DNA of 12,250 nt from Nanopusillaceae archaeon (GCA_049973735.1 JBMFJL010000013.1:1-12250); one strand, 5' to 3'; shown: positions 68 to 10,623, numbered from the stretch's first letter. A program made the numbers and translations. The notes: a model not told the origin generated them from the letters alone.

Positions 68-586
68 ATGGAATTATTCTCTACTTATATAAAACTCACA
101 TTTAAAAAATTTATTTCATTTTCATATTTTTCTAGCATTTGTCAAAAAACTATTTCATTACCATTTGCTAATATTATTGATTTAAAATATGTATTCAATA
201 AAAATATAATAATACCAAACGTTAATTTAATTGATATAAAAGATCTGTTTAATAAAAACATAATAATTTCAAGGAATTTCTTAGATTTTATTCAAAAATA
301 TTCATGCTTTACTAAAGTTCCAATAAAAACATTTACTTCAAAAATTTTTTCAATAGAAGAATTTAAAACTCGATTAAAATCAGTAAGGGAAATAATTCAA
401 AAAATTAATTATTTACCAATAATAATAATATCTGCACCAATAAAATTACTATTTGAAGTTTCTTCTCCGCCATATCAATTAATAAAAGAGATAGAATCAA
501 CTTATAGCTATATAGCTTTTAGTGCATTTATTATTATAATTTCAGCATTTTTATATTTAAGAATATGGAAAAGATTGAAAAAATAA
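68..586 (+). CDS. Hypothetical protein with a hydrophobic C-terminal tail (possibly tail-anchored); contains an internal imperfect 18-aa duplication
   Basis: 172-aa ORF from the track. The C-terminus YIAFSAFIIIISAFLYLRIWKRLKK looks like a TM segment plus a basic tail. Extremely AT-rich, no recognisable domain, so a spurious ORF cannot be excluded. Confidence 0.4.
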   Translation: MELFSTYIKLTFKKFISFSYFSSICQKTISLPFANIIDLKYVFNKNIIIPNVNLIDIKDLFNKNIIISRNFLDFIQKYSCFTKVPIKTFTSKIFSIEEFKTRLKSVREIIQKINYLPIIIISAPIKLLFEVSSPPYQLIKEIESTYSYIAFSAFIIIISAFLYLRIWKRLKK

Positions 587-1002
587 TAGTGATGATTTAT
601 CCAATAATTTTAGCACTTATAAGTAGTGATATAAGTAAAATTTTAGAAATTATTCTTTTTGTTTTTCCCCTAATTTTTTTAAGGGATGAAAAAGTTTATC
701 TTTCATTTTTTTACGGTCTATATTATGTAATATTAAAATTGATTTCAAAATTTTATTTATACAATTCTGGAATTTATATTTTAGAATTTTTCATTTTCCC
801 AGCTGGCGCCTTTTTTTCCTGTTTTTCAATTTCAATATCAAATCAACCAAATTTATTAATTGTTTCTCTATTTTTACTTTTCATCTCTTTATCAATAATG
901 TATGGTTTATATGTAATTTCAGAAAACTATGGGAAAATTACATTAGCCTCTTTTATAAATTTTCTCCTTTCTTCTTTGCCAAAACATATAAGTAGAATAT
1001 AA
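565..1002 (+). CDS. Hypothetical polytopic membrane protein (about 4 TM segments)
   Basis: 145-aa ORF made almost entirely of hydrophobic helices. It overlaps the previous ORF by 22 nt. An in-frame ATG at 592 (MIYPIILAL...) would remove that overlap and is an equally plausible start. The 3' end overlaps the convergent ORF 943-1125. Confidence 0.5.
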   Translation: MEKIEKIIVMIYPIILALISSDISKILEIILFVFPLIFLRDEKVYLSFFYGLYYVILKLISKFYLYNSGIYILEFFIFPAGAFFSCFSISISNQPNLLIVSLFLLFISLSIMYGLYVISENYGKITLASFINFLLSSLPKHISRI

Positions 1003-1125
1003 AATAAAAATAAAATATATAATTGCACCAATAATTTCTAATAAACTTTCTGAAAAAAGCATAGAAAAAACTAGTAAAAATAATAAAATTGTTCCATATA
1101 TGAAAAATATTAAATCCATGTCCAT
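943..1125 (-). CDS. Small two-TM membrane protein, last gene of the minus-strand operon
   Basis: 60-aa ORF with two hydrophobic helices and a basic tail (WQRRKEKIYKRG). It starts 7 nt downstream of the stop of the protease gene on the same strand. Confidence 0.45.
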   Translation of the reverse strand: MDMDLIFFIYGTILLFLLVFSMLFSESLLEIIGAIIYFIFILYSTYMFWQRRKEKIYKRG

Positions 1126-1132
1126 AAATATA

Positions 1133-1879
1133 TTAAATATAAGAAGGTAATATAGTTAATTGTGTTGGAATTCCATATACTGTTAAATTCATTAAAACAT
1201 GAAAATCATAGCTCATATGTGCAAACAAAGGAATCCAAATTGTAAATGTTTTTATTCCCAATTTCCCAAAAGTTTCTTCATTTAATATAAAACCTGAAAC
1301 TGTGAAAAATATAACTACTAAAGTCATTGGAATTAAATATATTAAAATTGCCCTTCCCCATGCATAAAAGTGGTTTGCAACAAATAGTAAACTTGAAATT
1401 AAAACTGCTAAAAATAAGCTAAATCTATAATTTTTTGTTTTTTCAATAAAATAATTAAAGAAAATTAACATTCCAACAATTCTAATTATTTCTTCATGAA
1501 ATGCAATAACAAATGTTGCTAATATATTTTCAAAAGGAGAATAAGATAAAAAAACACTCATTACTAATGAATCAGCCGGAAAAATTGAAGATTTTGCAAT
1601 ATTATATACAATTGAACCACAAAACCAACCAATAATTCCTGCAATAATAAATCTTAAAGCAATTATATGAGATGGAGCATTATTTAATGAAAAACCTAAA
1701 GCCTTGAAAAATTGAGTTCCTCTTGCTGAAACAATAATTAAAATTGGAATTAAAGTTAATGTATAAAATTCAAAAATGTTTAAATTTGTTCCTTTAATTG
1801 CAATAAAAGTTAAATATAATGCTAACCAACCAAATAAAAATAATGCTAATAATGGATTTTTTGGAATTCCTTCTATCAT
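1133..1879 (-). CDS. CPBP/PrsW-type (Abi clan, CAAX-protease-like) intramembrane protease
   Basis: 248-aa polytopic membrane protein. It carries the three ordered family motifs: FHEEIIRIVG (EExxR; canonical CPBP is EExxxR), LLFVANHFYAW (FxxxH) and LFAHMSYDF (HxxxD). Their spacing is about 40 and about 50 residues. Its ATG overlaps the stop of the upstream 1017-aa gene in an ATGA. Confidence 0.65.
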   Translation of the reverse strand: MIEGIPKNPLLALFLFGWLALYLTFIAIKGTNLNIFEFYTLTLIPILIIVSARGTQFFKALGFSLNNAPSHIIALRFIIAGIIGWFCGSIVYNIAKSSIFPADSLVMSVFLSYSPFENILATFVIAFHEEIIRIVGMLIFFNYFIEKTKNYRFSLFLAVLISSLLFVANHFYAWGRAILIYLIPMTLVVIFFTVSGFILNEETFGKLGIKTFTIWIPLFAHMSYDFHVLMNLTVYGIPTQLTILPSYI

Positions 1880-4800
1880 AATAAACTTTTCAAAAAGTTA
1901 ATTAAGTTCATTACAATATTAATTATCCATTCAATAAAATTATAAAGCCATTCAGTAAATGCAGTTGCATAAACTTTTTCTTTAACCCAAACTGAAAAAT
2001 ATTTTATTTCTCCTAAATTAAAAGAGCCCAATAATGCATCAACTATTTCATCGTTTACACAATAAAATTCTATTTCTCTTAAATTGTTTTTACCCATTGG
2101 ATCTGATGTTTCAAAAATTTTGTAAACATCAGAACATCTATAATTTTTAATTTTGAACCTTATTCTAACATCATCTAAAGGATATGGACTTAATGACCTA
2201 ACTTCAAATGGATAAATTAAGTATTGTGTTGAATCAATCAATTTTCTATAATATTGTTTCCATGTTGCATTTCCAACTGGAATTTGAAAAGATATTAAAT
2301 ATTTTCTTGATTCATATGGTTTTAAATCAAAAATATCTAAATCATAAGAGCCCCTTACAACTTTTTTCTCATCTATTAATTTATCATTATAATAAAGTTT
2401 TAAATTCTCTCCATATGTAATTGGAATTTGCTTTCTAACTGCAGGAACAAATTCTCCAATCCAATTTTTTACATCAATATCAACAATTAAATTTGCTAAA
2501 TGTCCAACATAAAACTTTTCTGGATATTTAGGAGCAGAAACTAAAACAGTAACTGGGGGACCAATAAATTCAACAATATGATATGTTTTTGAATTAGCAG
2601 GGGCACTACCTTCAACATAAATATATGGACCAATAGGTGGAAAACTAGAAAAATGCATTTCTTTTGGAATTCCATCAACTTTTGCATTTGAAGATTCTAA
2701 TGGTAAATGAATTGGTTCTTTATAATCCAATCCAACAGGATATTCATTTACACAACTTACATTCCATAAAAATATAAGATTTTCGCCAGCAATTGCATGT
2801 TTAACAGTTTTATTTATAACTTCACAATATACTTTCATCATTATTCCATAAACAACAATTTCTACATATGAATTTTCATCAATTCTTGGAATTTTAAAAG
2901 TTAATAAATCTGGCTTACCATTATTATTTGTATCATAAGTTTTCGGCGGACCATATAAAGAATTATCTAATATGCTTGGTCCCCCTCTAATATATATATC
3001 TTTAATTGATAATCTTTCATCTATTGGTAATGCAACAAAAACATCAAATAAAGTAAATGATTTTCCAGAAACATTTATTGTTAAATAATATTCCAATCTT
3101 TCAAATCTTTCAATAGTATTATAATTAATTGCTGAAATGTTTGTCCAAACTCTATAAGTTCTTTCTTCTCCAGGTAAAAAGTTTGAAAAATAAACTCTTA
3201 CTTTATTTTCATCATAATTTACTTCAATATTTTGATATTGGTCATTATATGTTACATTTACTTGATTAAATAATGATTCTGGAGGAATTGGTAATTCTTT
3301 ATATCCTTCTTTTATTTCTAATTCACCAATATTTTTTAATACAAGATCTCTAAATACTAATCCTTTCTTTCCAATTTCATATTTACAATCTGGGCAATAT
3401 TTTTTACAATATGCTTCAAAATCCCAATTTTTACATGGAATTGCATTATATGTTCCAATTTGAATAATATTAACATAACCGAATTTAAATATTGAAAATA
3501 TTGATAAAATTTTTTGTAAAATTCTTGTTATTATAACATTTCTACTTAATTCTTCAATAAAATTTTGAGTAATATTTACAGTTTTTATCACACTTTTACT
3601 TAATTTATCAATAATGCTTTCTTTTACATCATCTTTTTTTTCTGTTTTTGCTAAAATATTAATATTTTTTATTTCAAAAGAACCACTATTATCAACAGTT
3701 ATATTTACTATCAAATAGCAATAACCATTATCATCTGGATTACAAGTATTTAACCAATTAAAAAAATCTGTTTCATTAATATTAACAACTGCCGTTTGAC
3801 CTAAAAAATCACCAGAATATGAATATTCAATATTATTATCATTAAATACATCAACTCTTGGATTATTTAGATCATAATTTGAACATCCACCACCACTTCC
3901 TGGACTTGGGCATGTACAATCTGGCGGGCTAGGAGTATAAGAACACGAATAACAAGATGCACATCCTCCACCAGTATATGGTGAAGTACATGAACATGGC
4001 GGGCTAGGAGTATAAGAACATGAATAACAAGAATTACAAGTAGCAGAACAACTAACATATTCTTCACCTGTGCAAGGGTCTACTGAAGGACAAGAAGTAC
4101 TAGTTATTGCACTACATTTTCTATATGAGGTATATCCATATCCACAACCCATCCCAACAGAGTAGCAATCTGCTGTTGAAACGCCTAGAGAACATGCTGA
4201 ATCTGAATATGCAGTAAAAGAACAATAACAGGTAATAGAAGAAGGAGGGCTATAACTACATGTTTGAGTTTTTGATGTTGAACCTGGACCTTGAACACAT
4301 TGAGGAACATAAGTACCTGAACATGCATTACCACACAATCCACCAGAGCAGCTATAAACTTGTGATAAATATGCCTGAACCGATGCTGTAAAGTAGTAGG
4401 TAGATGTACAATAAATGCTAGCAGATGAATAATCATAGAAACTTAAAGAAGAACCTTCATCAGTAAAACCACTATTACATGTTGGATATAGTATACTTAC
4501 AGATGCTGAACTTCCACAACCTATTCCTTGATCATAATCATAACTACAAGTATAAGTACTTTTATAGTCTTTTATTCCTCCACCACTTCCTGGACTTGGG
4601 CATGCACAATTTTCCGAACAACTTGGGGTATAATAACATGAATAACAACTTGCAATTCCTCCACCAGTATATGGGGAAGTACATGAACAAGAAGGACAAG
4701 AAGGGGTATAAGAACAAGAATAACAAGAAACACATTCTCCAGATTTACCATAAATTGTAAAATTGAAAGGTGGAATATAAGTAAAATTTTTAAATATTTT

Positions 4801-4929
4801 AAAATAAAAAATGTTTGAACCTTTTGAAACAGAAAATGTATAAACTTTATCAGTCCCTCTATCGTAATATACTTGTGCAAATGAAATCGTGAAAAAAAGT
4901 AAAAATATTATTAATGCTTCCTTTCTCAT
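1876..4929 (-). CDS. Large secreted surface protein with an N-terminal Cys/Ser/Tyr/Thr/Gly/Pro-rich nested-repeat domain and a long beta-rich C-terminal region
   Basis: 1017-aa ORF with signal peptide MRKEALIIFLLFFTISFA/QV. Residues about 66-349 are almost exclusively C/S/Y/T/G/P, with about 40 Cys by manual count, and contain two roughly 53-aa modules. The rest is Asn/Lys/Ile/Tyr-rich with many N-x-S/T sequons. The C-terminus is amphipathic and hydrophobic (...FIEWIINIVMNLINFLKSLL). Confidence 0.9.
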   Translation of the reverse strand: MRKEALIIFLLFFTISFAQVYYDRGTDKVYTFSVSKGSNIFYFKIFKNFTYIPPFNFTIYGKSGECVSCYSCSYTPSCPSCSCTSPYTGGGIASCYSCYYTPSCSENCACPSPGSGGGIKDYKSTYTCSYDYDQGIGCGSSASVSILYPTCNSGFTDEGSSLSFYDYSSASIYCTSTYYFTASVQAYLSQVYSCSGGLCGNACSGTYVPQCVQGPGSTSKTQTCSYSPPSSITCYCSFTAYSDSACSLGVSTADCYSVGMGCGYGYTSYRKCSAITSTSCPSVDPCTGEEYVSCSATCNSCYSCSYTPSPPCSCTSPYTGGGCASCYSCSYTPSPPDCTCPSPGSGGGCSNYDLNNPRVDVFNDNNIEYSYSGDFLGQTAVVNINETDFFNWLNTCNPDDNGYCYLIVNITVDNSGSFEIKNINILAKTEKKDDVKESIIDKLSKSVIKTVNITQNFIEELSRNVIITRILQKILSIFSIFKFGYVNIIQIGTYNAIPCKNWDFEAYCKKYCPDCKYEIGKKGLVFRDLVLKNIGELEIKEGYKELPIPPESLFNQVNVTYNDQYQNIEVNYDENKVRVYFSNFLPGEERTYRVWTNISAINYNTIERFERLEYYLTINVSGKSFTLFDVFVALPIDERLSIKDIYIRGGPSILDNSLYGPPKTYDTNNNGKPDLLTFKIPRIDENSYVEIVVYGIMMKVYCEVINKTVKHAIAGENLIFLWNVSCVNEYPVGLDYKEPIHLPLESSNAKVDGIPKEMHFSSFPPIGPYIYVEGSAPANSKTYHIVEFIGPPVTVLVSAPKYPEKFYVGHLANLIVDIDVKNWIGEFVPAVRKQIPITYGENLKLYYNDKLIDEKKVVRGSYDLDIFDLKPYESRKYLISFQIPVGNATWKQYYRKLIDSTQYLIYPFEVRSLSPYPLDDVRIRFKIKNYRCSDVYKIFETSDPMGKNNLREIEFYCVNDEIVDALLGSFNLGEIKYFSVWVKEKVYATAFTEWLYNFIEWIINIVMNLINFLKSLL
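3883..4038 (-). repeat. Cys-rich module copy A (aa about 298-349: CNSCYSCSYTPSPPCSCTSPYTGGGCASCYSCSYTPSPPDCTCPSPGSGGGC)
   Basis: Contains two 35-nt sub-repeats (3923-3957 and 3998-4032) that differ at 1 position. Each encodes SCYSCSYTPSPP. It shares caccacttcctggacttgggcatgYacaat with copy B. Confidence 0.9.
4576..4734 (-). repeat. Cys-rich module copy B (aa about 66-118: CVSCYSCSYTPSCPSCSCTSPYTGGGIASCYSCYYTPSCSENCACPSPGSGGG)
   Basis: Lies exactly 690 nt (230 codons) from copy A. The 30-nt stretch 4581-4610 matches 3891-3920 at 29/30 positions. The rest of the module is conserved at protein level but more diverged at DNA level. Confidence 0.9.
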
Positions 4930-4947
4930 AATATTATGGAAGAAAGG
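4920..4947. promoter_or_regulatory. Palindromic head-to-head start region of the divergent operons
   Basis: The sequence is CCTTTCT-CATAATATTATG-GA-AGAAAGG. The 12-bp core CATAATATTATG (4927-4938) is a perfect palindrome whose two ends are the start codons of the minus-strand gene (4929) and the plus-strand gene (4936). The flanking CCTTTCT / AGAAAGG arms are complementary, with a 2-nt offset. Confidence 0.6.
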
Positions 4948-5571
4948 CTAATAATGTTTATTGTAACGTCATTAATTGTAATATTTGTATCATATATTGC
5001 TTCTTTTGTTCATGGTTCTTTGTTCATTTTATCTACAATATTTGCCTCCCTATCTTCTTTATTATTTTTTTATAAAAATGAATATCCAATTTTAAAACTT
5101 TTTCTATTTTTCTTTTTATCAACTTTAATATTTTCAATTTTTATTAATCTTTTTTTCCCTAACATTTATAAAGAAATAAAAGAAGAATTAGGAATGGGTG
5201 AAAAATTAGAAAGTAAAGAAAATTTATTAAGAACAATATTTTCTCACAACTTATCATTATATTTACAAGCTTTCATTTTATCTTCTCTTTCAATTGTTGG
5301 TGGTTTTATATATTTATTTTGGAATTTATTACTTTTTTGGATTCTTATTATTAATAGTATAAATCCATTTTTTACATTTATTATTTTAGCACCTCATGGA
5401 ATTTTAGAGTTTTTCTCTTTTTATCTTGCCTCAATTTCTGGAACAAAAATATTTAAAAATTTAATACTTAAAGAAGAAATAAGTGAAAAAGAAATTTTGA
5501 AAATGTTTTTATTTGGAATTTTAATTTTATTTATTGCAGCATTAATTGAAGTTTTAATAATTTCATTATGA
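4936..5571 (+). CDS. SpoIIM/DUF95-like polytopic membrane protein
   Basis: 211-aa multi-TM ORF. It carries the family-typical segments ...SHNLSLYLQAFILSSLSIVGG... and ...IILAPHGILEFFSFYLASISG... (the PHGxxE motif). An alternative start is M7 at 4954. The stop overlaps the next gene in an ATGA. Confidence 0.65.
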   Translation: MEERLIMFIVTSLIVIFVSYIASFVHGSLFILSTIFASLSSLLFFYKNEYPILKLFLFFFLSTLIFSIFINLFFPNIYKEIKEELGMGEKLESKENLLRTIFSHNLSLYLQAFILSSLSIVGGFIYLFWNLLLFWILIINSINPFFTFIILAPHGILEFFSFYLASISGTKIFKNLILKEEISEKEILKMFLFGILILFIAALIEVLIISL

Positions 5572-6011: not shown

Positions 6012-6641
6012 ATGGCCCTAAAAACTCAAGCAAATATATGGTTAGTAGTATTGCTATTACTAGGAATATTAGCAATAGCATTATATGTTAGACCACCAGC
6101 AGCTGTTCCACCAGCACCAGTAAAATATGAAGGAGAATTTAGAGCAATAGGATTACCAATGGAAGTAACTGGAACATGGTTAACTGGAAGTGAACAAGTA
6201 GTAACTCAATATGGTCAATATAACTTTACAACAAAGAAAGCATTAAGTGTTGTAGGTTCAGTATATCCATTAGCATTTAGATTTGATATAGATGATGCAT
6301 TTGAAAAAGTAAGAATAGATATTACAAAATTGTCAAGTGAGATTGATTTAGTAGAGGCTTGTATATTACCAGATGAAAAAGAAATGACATTAGATTGTAA
6401 AAATGCATTATATAAAGCAGAAATTGATACAGTAAGAGGTACAGCAGAATTTAAGATTGACAATTTAAGTGATAAGCAATATGATAAATATGTAATGCTA
6501 TTATCAACAAAAGTTACAGATCCAGCAGTAAATTCTACATATGTTACAGCAGATAGTGATCTATTCAAGCTAGTATTTGATGGTAAAAGTGATGGAGATG
6601 TTAAGGACTTTACAGTAATGATAATTAATGGAGGTTATTAA
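6012..6641 (+). CDS. Secreted or N-terminally anchored beta-rich protein, probably abundant and structural
   Basis: 209-aa ORF. The N-terminus MALKTQANIWLVVLLLLGILAIALYV is followed by a Pro/Ala linker (RPPAAVPPAPV). Codon choice is visibly different from neighbouring membrane genes (gca/gta/aca/gga-rich). It ends in a double stop TAATAG followed by an oligo-T terminator. Confidence 0.85.
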   Translation: MALKTQANIWLVVLLLLGILAIALYVRPPAAVPPAPVKYEGEFRAIGLPMEVTGTWLTGSEQVVTQYGQYNFTTKKALSVVGSVYPLAFRFDIDDAFEKVRIDITKLSSEIDLVEACILPDEKEMTLDCKNALYKAEIDTVRGTAEFKIDNLSDKQYDKYVMLLSTKVTDPAVNSTYVTADSDLFKLVFDGKSDGDVKDFTVMIINGGY

Positions 6642-7700: not shown

Positions 7701-8576
7701 ATGAGCATAAAAAATCAAGCAGGATTAATAGTAGGAATAACACTAATGATATTAGGAATAATTGGCTTATTAGATGAAATGGGTATAATAGACCTTAAAT
7801 TATTATCAGCATATCAACAAGGAAATCCGGGAATGGGGTTAAAACTATCAATAAAACCAGTATCATTATTCCCATTAGAAGTTGTTGAACCAGGAAAAAC
7901 ATATGAATTTGAAGTAACATTAAGAAATACTGGTACCATGAATTGGGATTCTGCTTGGGTCCATCTCAGAATTCCAAATTATAGAAATACAGGAAAGACA
8001 ACAACTAATGTACCAATAGGAGGAACATTAACTAGAAGCTGTGATTCAGGTGCTACAGAAATTCCAACTGGCTCTTGTAGCGAGGGTGTAGAGGTTGGAT
8101 GGACAGGTCAATGTGTTCAAGGATACGATCATTATGTTGTAGAATGGATACAAAAACCAGGAACTAAAAAATGTGTTGCAGACCATTCCACTTATAGTAG
8201 TAGTATAGATATGAATCAAATTATAACAAAAGTATCAGGAGATGGAAATTTTGTTAGAGATGGAAATTTTGTTAGAATTGATTATGGTTCAGTAAGTGCA
8301 GGAGCAAGTAAAACAACAAGACTAAGAATTACAATACCTTCAGATTTGCCAAATAAAATGTTTAATGACCCAAACGAAATTAATTATGTGCCATTAGTAA
8401 TAACAGGAGGAGCAAGTGCAGGCGGAACAAGAGCATTTGAAACAAAAATTATACAATTGCAAAATGGTGCAGTTTTTGCTTATGAATTTACAGTAAGATG
8501 GATAGGATTAGTATCAGCTGCAATAATTGGCACAGCATTAACTCTATTTTTCAGTAGAAGATTAGGATATATATGA
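7701..8576 (+). CDS. Surface protein with a CARDB/Ig-like beta-sandwich region, a 4-Cys insert and a C-terminal motif + TM + basic tail
   Basis: 291-aa ORF with N-terminus MSIKNQAGLIVGITLMILGIIGLL. LEVVEPGKTYEFEVTLRNTG is a typical CARDB/NEW3-like strand pattern. The C-terminus is FAYEFTVRWIG-LVSAAIIGTALTLFF-SRRLGYI. Confidence 0.9.
   Translation: MSIKNQAGLIVGITLMILGIIGLLDEMGIIDLKLLSAYQQGNPGMGLKLSIKPVSLFPLEVVEPGKTYEFEVTLRNTGTMNWDSAWVHLRIPNYRNTGKTTTNVPIGGTLTRSCDSGATEIPTGSCSEGVEVGWTGQCVQGYDHYVVEWIQKPGTKKCVADHSTYSSSIDMNQIITKVSGDGNFVRDGNFVRIDYGSVSAGASKTTRLRITIPSDLPNKMFNDPNEINYVPLVITGGASAGGTRAFETKIIQLQNGAVFAYEFTVRWIGLVSAAIIGTALTLFFSRRLGYI
8241..8276 (+). repeat. Perfect 18-bp tandem duplication (gatggaaattttgttaga x2)
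   Basis: 8241-8258 is identical to 8259-8276. The duplication is in frame and encodes DGNFVR-DGNFVR. Confidence 0.95.
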
Positions 8577-9343
8577 AAATTAAATTAGAACATTTAGCAA
8601 TAGTAGCAGCAATAGTAGTAGGTCTATATTTAGCTAAGACTTTCCTTCTTTCTTATATTTCTTATGTAAAATTAACATCAGATAGATACCATCTTCTTTA
8701 TGGTAAACCTGTTACTTTTACACTTACTTGCGAATATTATTTAAATGAGGGAGGAAAATATACAGTAAAAGTTGGAGATTGTACTTATAGTTATTATTGG
8801 GCTAGTAGTGGATTAAAAACAGATACGTGTACATATAAAGATAGCATTTTTTATACAGAAGGTGGTAAAACATTTTATTGTGAAGTTACACATGAAAGTA
8901 GTGGGGAAAAGAAAACAGCTTCTGTAACTGTTTGTTTTGATAGAGTTGAAAATTTAAGAGTAAGTCCAACATCTATTACAGTTTCACCAGGGCAAAAATA
9001 TACTATAACAGTTGAACTAAATGCTTATAGTTATGGGGCATGTGCTACTTATAATAAAAAAATTTATATAGATAATAATTTGGTTGATAGTTTTAGTTAT
9101 TTAAGCAATAATTATTATAAAAAATCATTTGAGCTAACTGCTCCAAGCAATCCAGGAACTTATACTAAATACGTAAGGGTAAAAACATATGATGATGCAT
9201 TTGAATTTACCTCAACATCTTTTACAGTAACTGTTACTTCTTCTCAACCATCACAACAATTTGGTTATGAATTTGTATATAGATGGATAGGTCAGGTTTT
9301 ATCATTAATAAAAGAAGCTTTATCATTAATTAAACCTATTTAA
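8573..9343 (+). CDS. Secreted or anchored Ig-like/CARDB-like protein, C-terminal paralog of the 7701 gene product
   Basis: 256-aa ORF in an ATGA overlap with the upstream gene, with an AGGA 5 nt upstream. The N-terminal TM is MKIKLEHLAIVAAIVVGLYLAKTFLL. Ig-like patterns include VSPTSITVSPGQKYTITVELN and APSNPGTYTKYVRVKT. The C-terminus is FGYEFVYRWIGQVLSLIKEALSLIKPI. Confidence 0.85.
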   Translation: MKIKLEHLAIVAAIVVGLYLAKTFLLSYISYVKLTSDRYHLLYGKPVTFTLTCEYYLNEGGKYTVKVGDCTYSYYWASSGLKTDTCTYKDSIFYTEGGKTFYCEVTHESSGEKKTASVTVCFDRVENLRVSPTSITVSPGQKYTITVELNAYSYGACATYNKKIYIDNNLVDSFSYLSNNYYKKSFELTAPSNPGTYTKYVRVKTYDDAFEFTSTSFTVTVTSSQPSQQFGYEFVYRWIGQVLSLIKEALSLIKPI

Positions 9344-9727: not shown

Positions 9728-10078
9728 ATGAGAGTATGGAAAATATCTTTATTAATTTTAATTTTTTGGATAATTTTTATCAATGTTTTTTCAAATTATG
9801 AAATAAAAATAGAAGAAAACAAAACAAAAAATTTTGGTAATAGTTCTAATGTAAATATAGGAACAATGGCAAGCTTAACAGTAGAAGTAAAAAGGGCTAA
9901 ATATTTTTTCATTTTTCCAACATATATATATTTTTATAAGCCAATTATTTCAAATTTTAATATTTATTTAGTTCCTGGAGAAATTAGGGTTTTTGAAATT
10001 ACAATTGCATTAATAATTATTACTTTAATTCTTTTTATTTTTGATATTTTAAAGCGAAAAGATTATGAATTAATTTAA
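9728..10078 (+). CDS. Hypothetical bitopic membrane protein (N- and C-terminal TM)
   Basis: 116-aa ORF with N-terminal TM ISLLILIFWIIFINVF and C-terminal TM ITIALIIITLILFIF followed by KRK. It starts directly at the end of the terminator T-tract with no visible promoter, so expression is uncertain. Confidence 0.5.
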   Translation: MRVWKISLLILIFWIIFINVFSNYEIKIEENKTKNFGNSSNVNIGTMASLTVEVKRAKYFFIFPTYIYFYKPIISNFNIYLVPGEIRVFEITIALIIITLILFIFDILKRKDYELI

Positions 10079-10086
10079 TATATATT

Positions 10087-10623
10087 ATGGTTTCAAAGAA
10101 ATTGCTAATAGCTATTACATTAATAGGAATTTTATTAGGAATAGCAATTATATTTAAAGGAAATGAAAATTTAAAAGCTAGTGGCAAATATTTAACAACA
10201 GTAGAAATATATAAAAATGGGGAATTAATATGGAAAGGAAGTAATGTAATAACAGATATAGGATTTAACTTTACAAGAGGACAACTTTTAACACCATTAA
10301 CAGGAGTATCATTAAAATATATTAGCTTATCAAATGTTAGCGGAGTTTGTTCTAATACAGCAACAAATATACAAGAATTAAATGTATGTGGATTAACAAG
10401 AGCTGAAGGAACAGTTACACAATATGGATATAACCAATATATAGTTGAGAAAACATTTACATTAACTTGTGATGTTCCAAACGTTCAAGTAGCAGGATTG
10501 CATTGGGATCCAACAGCACAATCTGATAATAATTTATTTAGTTGTGCTAGCTTTCCAGTAGTTAATTTAGTAACTAATGACCAAATAACAATTAGGTGGA
10601 ATGTGACAATGATAGAAGGTTAA
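10087..10623 (+). CDS. N-terminally anchored or secreted beta-rich protein
   Basis: 178-aa ORF with N-terminus MVSKKLLIAITLIGILLGIAIIF. The all-beta-like remainder contains 4 Cys. Codon choice resembles the 6012, 7701 and 9433 genes. Confidence 0.85.
   Translation: MVSKKLLIAITLIGILLGIAIIFKGNENLKASGKYLTTVEIYKNGELIWKGSNVITDIGFNFTRGQLLTPLTGVSLKYISLSNVSGVCSNTATNIQELNVCGLTRAEGTVTQYGYNQYIVEKTFTLTCDVPNVQVAGLHWDPTAQSDNNLFSCASFPVVNLVTNDQITIRWNVTMIEG

Follow-up and report, generated by a model that had tools for sequence, protein, structure and literature searches.

Here we describe a set of three genes in a 12,250-bp contig from a Nanopusillaceae (Nanoarchaeota, DPANN) metagenome-assembled genome (GCA_049973735.1, JBMFJL010000013.1:1-12250; GC content ~25%), which was analysed over its entire length and is called the window below. 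The genes encode a giant, Cys-rich exported protein of 1017 aa, a protein of 248 aa and a mini membrane protein of 60 aa. Our comparisons indicate that the 248-aa protein is very probably a homolog of the CPBP superfamily, of which it would represent a deep and unannotated branch, and that it is likely to be functionally coupled to the giant protein. Related loci and individual proteins are designated by L and P numbers, respectively.

The original prediction had placed the three open reading frames (ORFs) on one strand, with an ATGA overlap between the first two and a gap of 7 nt before the third, and both translation and reading of the sequence reproduced this arrangement in full (Table 1; the spacer occupies 1126-1132). 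As far as the sequence tells, the stop/start overlap is a translational coupling of the giant gene to the CPBP-like gene. At its other end, the start codon of the giant gene is parted from that of a divergent SpoIIM-family gene by 6 nt alone (4930-4935, AATATT). Therefore, either the promoters lie inside neighbouring coding sequence or one of the two start codons is miscalled.

Table 1. Features of the window and, where a locus number precedes the coordinates, of related loci
Feature	Coordinates	Strand	Basis or remark
Giant Cys-rich exported protein, 1017 aa	1876..4929	(-)	ORF; identical to NCBI hypothetical protein ACP5G1_01570 (P0005)
CPBP/Rce1-like protease homolog, 248 aa	1133..1879	(-)	ORF; NCBI hypothetical protein ACP5G1_01565
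Two-helix mini membrane protein, 60 aa	943..1125	(-)	ORF
ATGA stop/start overlap, giant gene to CPBP-like gene	1876..1879	(-)	Read from sequence
Signal peptide, residues 1-18, MRKEALIIFLLFFTISFA	4876..4929	(-)	By eye from translation
Cys-rich repeat region, residues 61-360	3850..4749	(-)	Cys count and motif matches
C-terminal ~510-aa module, residues ~480-990	1960..3492	(-)	Common to helix-bearing homologs
C-terminal amphipathic helix, residues 991-1017, FTEWLYNFIEWIINIVMNLINFLKSLL	1879..1959	(-)	Hydrophobic moment (muH), insertion cost
Motif 1, E129-E130-I-I-R133 (EExxR)	1481..1495	(-)	Codons read; EE invariant
Motif 2, F166-V-A-N-H170 (FxxxH)	1370..1384	(-)	H170 invariant, 166 F/W
Motif 3, H221-M-S-Y-D225 (HxxxD/N)	1205..1219	(-)	H221 invariant, 225 D/N
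SpoIIM-family membrane protein gene	4936-5571	Divergent from giant gene	PF01944, E 3.8e-9
256-aa exported protein, amphipathic C-terminal helix …YEFVYRWIGQVLSLIKEALSLIKPI	8573..9343	(+)	muH 0.60, insertion cost +9.2
178-aa exported protein	10087..10623	(+)	Homologs adjoin CPBP-like or giant gene elsewhere
CPHC/CPYC thioredoxin-fold genes	L005:7526-7972, L007:7447-7902, L008:6438-6872, L013:7803-8282		Upstream of giant gene

The relationship of the 248-aa protein to the CPBP superfamily emerged from comparisons between profiles. When 12 core sequences of its family were compared by hhalign with four proteins positive for PF02517 (CPBP/Rce1-like), with the bridging sequence excluded, the two groups aligned over 173 columns (probability 95.9%, E 5.5e-9). 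The alignment paired EE with EE, H170 with the histidine of the FxxxH motif (LIHLP), and H221 and D225 with the HxxxD motif (HITND). A 13-sequence family profile retrieved PF02517-annotated 'CAAX protease family' proteins from 5.8 billion sequences (1.8e-6 to 1e-4). These 13 sequences diverge down to ~20% identity, and all of them retain E129, E130, H170 and H221; position 225 is occupied by D or N, and position 166 by F or W. Going by this residue pattern, the protein is probably catalytically competent. The AlphaFold2 model built from the same alignment contains eight long helices (predicted local distance difference test score 83.5, predicted template modelling score 0.82) and places the three motifs on the 4th, 5th and 7th of them.

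Direct searches were less favourable, and several of them count against the assignment. The window protein matches PF02517 with 16 bits (E 0.015), under the gathering threshold of 22.4 bits, and has no match in NCBIfam at E <= 1. Its first motif reads EExxR where the canonical CPBP motif is EExxxR, a Foldseek search of the model against the PDB found no match to Rce1 or to any other entry, and sequence profile searches of the PDB (A1, A2) found none either. Among the relatives, the Arg of motif 1 is swapped for K, C or T in some members. P0002-P0004 and the L008 homolog, all close relatives, have no PF02517 match. Several more distant members match over the same region with 16-20 bits (P0017 with E 0.015, others with 8.6e-4 and 2.2e-3), and one, P0024, clears the threshold (41 bits, E 2.3e-10). 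The family is very rare: a search of 5.8 billion clustered proteins yielded four homologs, and a search of 1.84 billion proteins yielded 11 representatives, among which P0023, with a helicase HA2 domain, is probably spurious.

As to the 'CPBP/PrsW-type' label of the original prediction, the CPBP half is upheld by the profile-profile alignment and the catalytic residues, whereas the PrsW half is not, as no match to PF13367 was obtained at E <= 1. The Pfam and NCBIfam models by which the protein was to be recognised failed to do so: it falls below the PF02517 threshold, misses PF13367 and matches no sortase-like CPBP model. This includes the Mrt models of NCBIfam (e.g. MrtA NF040590, MrtJ NF033192), none of which matched the window protein at E <= 1; among the 13 family members, just one touches the MrtJ model (2e-4).

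Functional coupling is suggested by the conserved neighbourhood of the two genes. A profile search for related loci with a 5-sequence alignment found just close relatives. The order giant / 25x-aa / ~58-aa, with overlapping stop and start codons, recurs in four further contigs at 45-98% protein identity, and the arrangement is therefore not due to chance. The proteases of L001, L002 and L003 are 45-50% identical to that of the window, to which L004 and L010 are near-identical. The giant and CPBP-like genes overlap by 10 nt in L001 and in L002 and by 4 nt in L003 and in L004, and in L002 an 88-aa gene is inserted within the order. At larger distances, L008 and L013 (the latter contig labelled Thermoplasmata, GC 29%) encode a giant homolog of 1346 or 1316 aa and, two genes upstream of it, a CPBP-like protein that is 24-29% identical. 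In L016 and L015 (GC 41-47%, giant proteins ~22% identical to that of the window), CPBP-like genes with intact EE/H/HxxxD lie two and three genes upstream of the giant homolog, respectively. Overall, the protease gene is found 0-3 genes from the giant homolog in eight of the nine lineages in which the giant protein ends in the amphipathic helix described below, and 18 kb away in the remaining one. Pairwise identities within the protease family also correlate with those computed for the giant protein over its last 170 residues (r = 0.86, 36 pairs), which shows long co-inheritance of both families. The original prediction had proposed looking for such co-occurrence across genomes, and the linkage was indeed found to persist over deep divergence and to track the helix-terminated C-terminal module.

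Three giant proteins (P0011, P0012 and P0013) have their whole C-terminal half replaced and end in an ordinary transmembrane (TM) anchor, and no CPBP-like gene was found near them within the ±8 kb flank in L007, 9.9 kb in L017 and 7.5 kb in L018. The protease is thus on the same contig in 9/9 lineages with the helix and in 0/3 TM-anchored variants, a count that comprises few lineages without phylogenetic independence, in which the three negatives may be one clade and two of their contigs (L017, L018) are short. These limits tell against the maturation reading proposed below, as does the fact that correlation with the helix is inseparable from correlation with the whole ~510-aa C-terminal module. 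So does the L005/L006 lineage, which has no adjacent protease gene and instead carries a window-type copy 18 kb off, on the same contig and the opposite strand (L012). There, the protease gene forms an operon with the genes for a protein of the 178-aa type, a mini protein of 61 aa and a membrane protein of 167 aa, so that the mini protein, and not the giant one, may be the constant partner of the protease. Accordingly, of the 'dedicated substrate/protease pair' that had been predicted, we retain the linkage and give up the exclusivity: the two genes are 18 kb apart in one lineage and are part of a larger conserved cluster, so that 'dedicated pair' is too narrow a term.

Two observations concern the partners in individual lineages. 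The giant protein P0007 most resembles its L008 counterpart, yet the protease of the same lineage is closest to the window clade (L006 versus L012, contig Ga0190367_1000362; pairwise identities), which suggests that there are two protease subtypes and that one was replaced by the other. Upstream of two TM-anchored variants, we found genes for small HExxH membrane proteins with a weak match to Peptidase_M50B (L017:137-640, L018:731-1237), which may be an alternative intramembrane protease partner for these variants. A similar HETSHY protein (L009:1378-1854) is encoded divergently beside a CPBP-like gene.

The giant protein begins with what, by eye, is a Sec-type signal peptide (basic n-region, hydrophobic core and SFA↓Q). 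It contains 50 cysteines, 40 of them within residues 1-360. In this region, a ~23-aa motif, CxxCxYTPxxPxCxCxSP(Y/G)xGGG, forms two tandem pairs on either side of a Cys-rich insert: the pattern C..C.Y.P..C.C.SP..GGG occurs at residues 69, 301 and 326, and a looser fourth copy, CYSCYYTPSCSENCACPSPGSGGG, was recognised by eye in the translation after the first. The Cys motif repeats are also present in the homologs P0006-P0013. Ten homologs of the giant protein were found among 5.8 billion proteins, and Pfam, NCBIfam and PHROG gave no significant family match. The C-terminal module was delimited by BLASTP alignments that run from residue 445, 480 or 492 to 1017 against L002, L008, L005/6 and L013, and it is missing from the TM-anchored variants P0011-P0013.

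In 12 homologs, the shared ~510-aa module is followed by a short, often Pro-rich linker and then by a helix of 27-30 residues, which starts with (Y/F)(D/N)(F/L)(I/F)(E/D) and is kept in position and length. The helix of the window protein is Cys-free, has no basic cluster and carries one Asn/Glu polar stripe; its muH is 0.56, and its summed insertion cost on the Hessa scale is +6.2 kcal/mol, which excludes a TM helix that inserts by itself. The homologs are similar in these respects. Their muH values range from 0.50 to 0.72, each helix carries a single Asn/Asp/Glu/Lys stripe, the last 60 residues are without Cys in 11/12 (P0008 has one), and the last 8 residues include 0-1 basic residues in all 12. 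Their insertion costs are +3.7 to +11.2 kcal/mol, compared with -7.0 to +3.2 kcal/mol for the true TM anchors encoded in the same loci, which rules out an ordinary TM anchor. The signal peptide and the unusual amphipathic C-terminus attributed to the large protein by the original prediction were both borne out by the translation and the muH of the tail. A tripartite -CTERM signal was ruled out because the tail has neither a Cys motif, a TM segment nor an Arg cluster, and a CAAX box because the last four residues are KSLL; the homologs end in LLWR, FLWK, SIKL, SLIA and the like, with no Cys at position -4. Model searches and inspection of the tail residues thus agree with the earlier view that the tail fits no named -CTERM signal and no CAAX box. 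We infer that the helix serves as a recognition or cleavage element. That it is the cleaved signal of the giant protein is a plausible but tentative reading, to which we assign well below an even chance.

The mini protein consists of two helices, contains an acidic E(S/D)xxE motif that is conserved, and ends in a basic C-tail; its ORF is conserved in five lineages. The homologous gene follows the CPBP-like gene in L001, L002 and L004, is inverted in L003, and lies two genes downstream of the CPBP-like gene in L009/L012. The exact 60-aa sequence was absent from the protein collection that we searched. On the complementary strand, the 3' end of an ORF at 565-1002 (+) overlaps the 3' end of the mini gene by 60 nt (943-1002); it encodes a 145-aa membrane protein that was seen just in the near-identical contigs L004 and L010.

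Among the closest known systems are those of the CPBP sorting enzymes (myxosortases, MrtJ/S/A), which act on tripartite tails comprising an invariant Cys, a TM segment and an Arg cluster. In these Mrt systems (MrtX/MrtC/MrtP, MrtJ, MrtS and archaeomyxosortase MrtA, with MYXO-, JDVT-, Synerg- and CGP-CTERM clients), an Rce1-related protease is likewise genetically tied to exported surface proteins, and the clients likewise end in a conserved C-terminal element. The window system differs in having one or two apparent clients beside the enzyme instead of many across the genome, and in its two-helix mini partner. As its tail lacks all three tripartite elements and its enzyme fits no Mrt model of NCBIfam, it does not belong to the Mrt systems, although its mode of action may be similar. 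The absence of the tripartite elements is at the same time an argument against a sorting role for the helix.

The type II CAAX prenyl endopeptidase Rce1 offers a structural comparison. MmRce1 (PDB 4CAD) uses the catalytic set E140/E141/R145/H173/H227/N231, with residue spacings similar to those of the 248-aa protein. Both have about eight helices, and in both the 4th long helix carries EE, the 5th H and the 7th HxxxD/N. They differ in the spacing of motif 1 (EExxxR in Rce1), in the missing Foldseek similarity, and in the neighbouring protein, which here has no CAAX box. The presumed substrate here is extracellular, whereas the catalytic cavity of Rce1 opens to the cytosol, and this mismatch in the location of the substrate end is another argument against the proposed cleavage.

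MroQ, a CAAX/Abi-family protease of the agr pathway in Staphylococcus aureus, is the best mechanistic analogy for a cut beside an amphipathic tail: it depends on its EE/H residues and cleaves AgrD in the linker that adjoins the amphipathic, membrane-anchoring helix. In AgrD, however, this helix lies at the N-terminus, and AgrD is a peptide precursor of 46 aa, as opposed to a 1017-aa protein; moreover, the MroQ model is touched by one peripheral relative alone (E 1e-3) and not by the window protein. PrsW, the site-1 protease of the anti-sigma factor RsiW, belongs to the same superfamily, and its EExxK spacing resembles the EExxR of the 248-aa protein; as a difference, no sigma or anti-sigma gene was found near the 248-aa gene in the window.

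Related clusters encode further proteins that could act on the giant protein. In four lineages, the giant gene is immediately preceded by the gene for a membrane-anchored thioredoxin-fold protein with a CP(H/Y)C motif, and in L013 a 126-aa S26 signal peptidase (L013:8267-8647; PF10502, E 5.6e-5) is encoded between the thioredoxin-like and giant genes and may be a private signal peptidase. The presence of these genes beside the giant gene and the CPBP-like gene suggests a maturation cassette. Dedicated secretion and maturation cassettes for specific surface proteins are known, such as SipW-TasA and those with DsbA-type oxidoreductases, and the related clusters resemble them in placing the S26 peptidase and CPHC thioredoxin-fold genes directly upstream of the giant gene. 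The window differs from such cassettes in this point, since both genes are absent from its 12 kb.

On this basis we propose, with slightly less than even confidence, that the 248-aa and 60-aa proteins form a small membrane unit within a maturation cassette for the giant protein, and that the protease cuts at the helix. The giant protein would be exported by Sec and lose its signal peptide, and its many cysteines would be oxidised, possibly with the help of the thioredoxin-like protein and S26 peptidase that related clusters encode alongside. The Asn/Glu-striped helix, unable to span the membrane alone, would be held there by docking on the CPBP-like and mini proteins. The protease would then cut either within the linker, which is short and often Pro-rich, or at the (Y/F)(D/N)(F/L) start of the helix, and the cut would release or hand over the ectodomain. 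That the helix is cleaved at all we likewise infer.

The main alternative, which we consider unlikely but credible, is that the protease serves a wider surface cluster, in which case its real substrate would be the 256-aa type, the 178-aa type or a prepilin-like protein, and the adjacency of the giant gene would reflect compaction of the cluster. Indeed, the window and related loci have many other exported and membrane proteins in common, with shared homologs of its 209-, 291-, 116-, 178- and 499-aa proteins, of which the 209-, 291-, 178- and 499-aa types are exported immunoglobulin-like or prepilin-like proteins. Homologs of the 178-aa protein were found in L007, in L013, where they adjoin the giant gene, and in L009/L011/L012, where their gene directly follows the CPBP-like gene while the giant gene is 18 kb off. 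Moreover, the 256-aa protein has a second amphipathic C-terminal tail, with counterparts in L013 (226 aa, ending IRKTIGDVLLSLFRSLFG) and L015 (272 aa). Its terminal helix differs in sequence from that of the giant protein of the same 12-kb contig, and the protein is possibly a second client of the protease. Nevertheless, it is the giant gene that lies 0-3 genes from the protease in 8/9 lineages, translationally coupled in four of them, whereas in the window the 178-aa gene is 8 kb off on the other strand, and L007 has the 178-aa type beside a TM-anchored variant with no CPBP-like gene found.

A further alternative, rather improbable in our view, is that the CPBP-like and mini proteins do not cleave but act as a receptor or scaffold that binds the polar-striped helix and tethers the giant protein, or that the CPBP-like protein has an Abi-type immunity or regulatory role. 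The CAAX-family proteins SpdA-C and Abx1 of bacteria act without proteolysis, which tells against cleavage here and keeps the scaffold or receptor model alive. A helix that cannot insert by itself (+3.7 to +11 kcal/mol) and whose conserved Asn/Asp/Glu stripe suits helix-helix contacts would fit such a role, as would the conserved acidic E(S/D)xxE motif of the mini protein. However, the invariance of E, E, H and H and the retention of the oxyanion-hole D/N at ~20% identity are as expected of an active enzyme, and SpdC-like scaffolds have diverged motifs. That there is no functional link at all, the 248-aa protein being an unrelated polytopic protein, its Pfam match spurious and the gene order a chance outcome of genome compactness, would agree with the sub-threshold PF02517 match, the four members without one and the missing structural matches, but is highly improbable and largely refuted in view of the strong profile-profile and transitive homology evidence and of a linkage kept at ~20% protein identity and a 20-point GC difference.

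Several observations were made on the other genes of the surface cluster. The products of the overlapping genes at 7701-8576 and 8573-9343, both exported, share the C-terminal motif F(A/G)YEF(T/V)(V/Y)RWIG, after which one continues into a true TM helix and RR and the other into an amphipathic helix; L013 has the same pair (236 and 226 aa). The N-termini MALKTQ↓ANIW… and MSIKNQ↓AGLIV… (window 6012-6641 and 7701-8576) and MKGQ↓ISTAG… (L013:3653-4321) resemble archaeal class III prepilin-type signals, with no support from Pfam models and no pilus ATPase or platform gene in the window. After the giant gene of L008, a 263-aa protein (L008:10938-11729) looks like a fusion of the 116-aa type with a 167-aa multi-helix type: its N-terminal part matches the 116-aa protein of the window (9728-10078; BLASTP E 3e-4), and its C-terminal part resembles, by eye, the 167-aa type encoded after the mini gene in L009/L012 (L009:3443-3946). 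In L007 (Aenigmatarchaeota genome, JAWBVK010000001.1), a 610-aa Fsx1/HAP2-GCS1 fusexin is encoded 4.5 kb downstream of P0012 (L007:15191-17023). As archaeal fusexins have been reported within integrated mobile elements (PMC9259645), this neighbourhood raises the question of whether the surface cluster is mobile or tied to cell contact or fusion. A viral origin of the contig was rejected: searches of 50,697 phage and archaeal-virus records by megablast and tblastn gave no match, no relatives were found in IMG/VR, and the contig has no terminal repeat. Scans of the window for tRNAs, Rfam families and tandem repeats found nothing relevant.

CPBP/Rce1-like proteases have just recently been recognised in a sortase-like role for prokaryotic surface proteins, and all signals known for them are of the Cys-TM-Arg kind. 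It is possible, though on balance doubtful, that the genes described here belong to a previously unrecognised archaeal sorting and maturation system. In it, a new CPBP branch with a mini subunit would read a Cys-free, non-tripartite amphipathic-helix signal on giant disulfide-rich surface proteins, and in sister clusters a private DsbA-like oxidoreductase and signal peptidase would assist. Together, these genes would make up a rare and possibly laterally mobile cell-contact cluster of DPANN and other thermophilic archaea. The protease family is entirely overlooked by standard annotation (Pfam threshold, NCBIfam, PGAP), and a branch tied to such a terminal helix, if real, would widen the rules by which sorting signals are found. 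The relevance for prokaryotic protein sorting and DPANN surface biology is bounded by the rarity of the family and by its uncultivated hosts. For the giant surface proteins of DPANN archaea, which are annotated as 'hypothetical' and are the foremost candidates for attaching these obligate symbionts to their hosts, such a system would provide a first functional handle.

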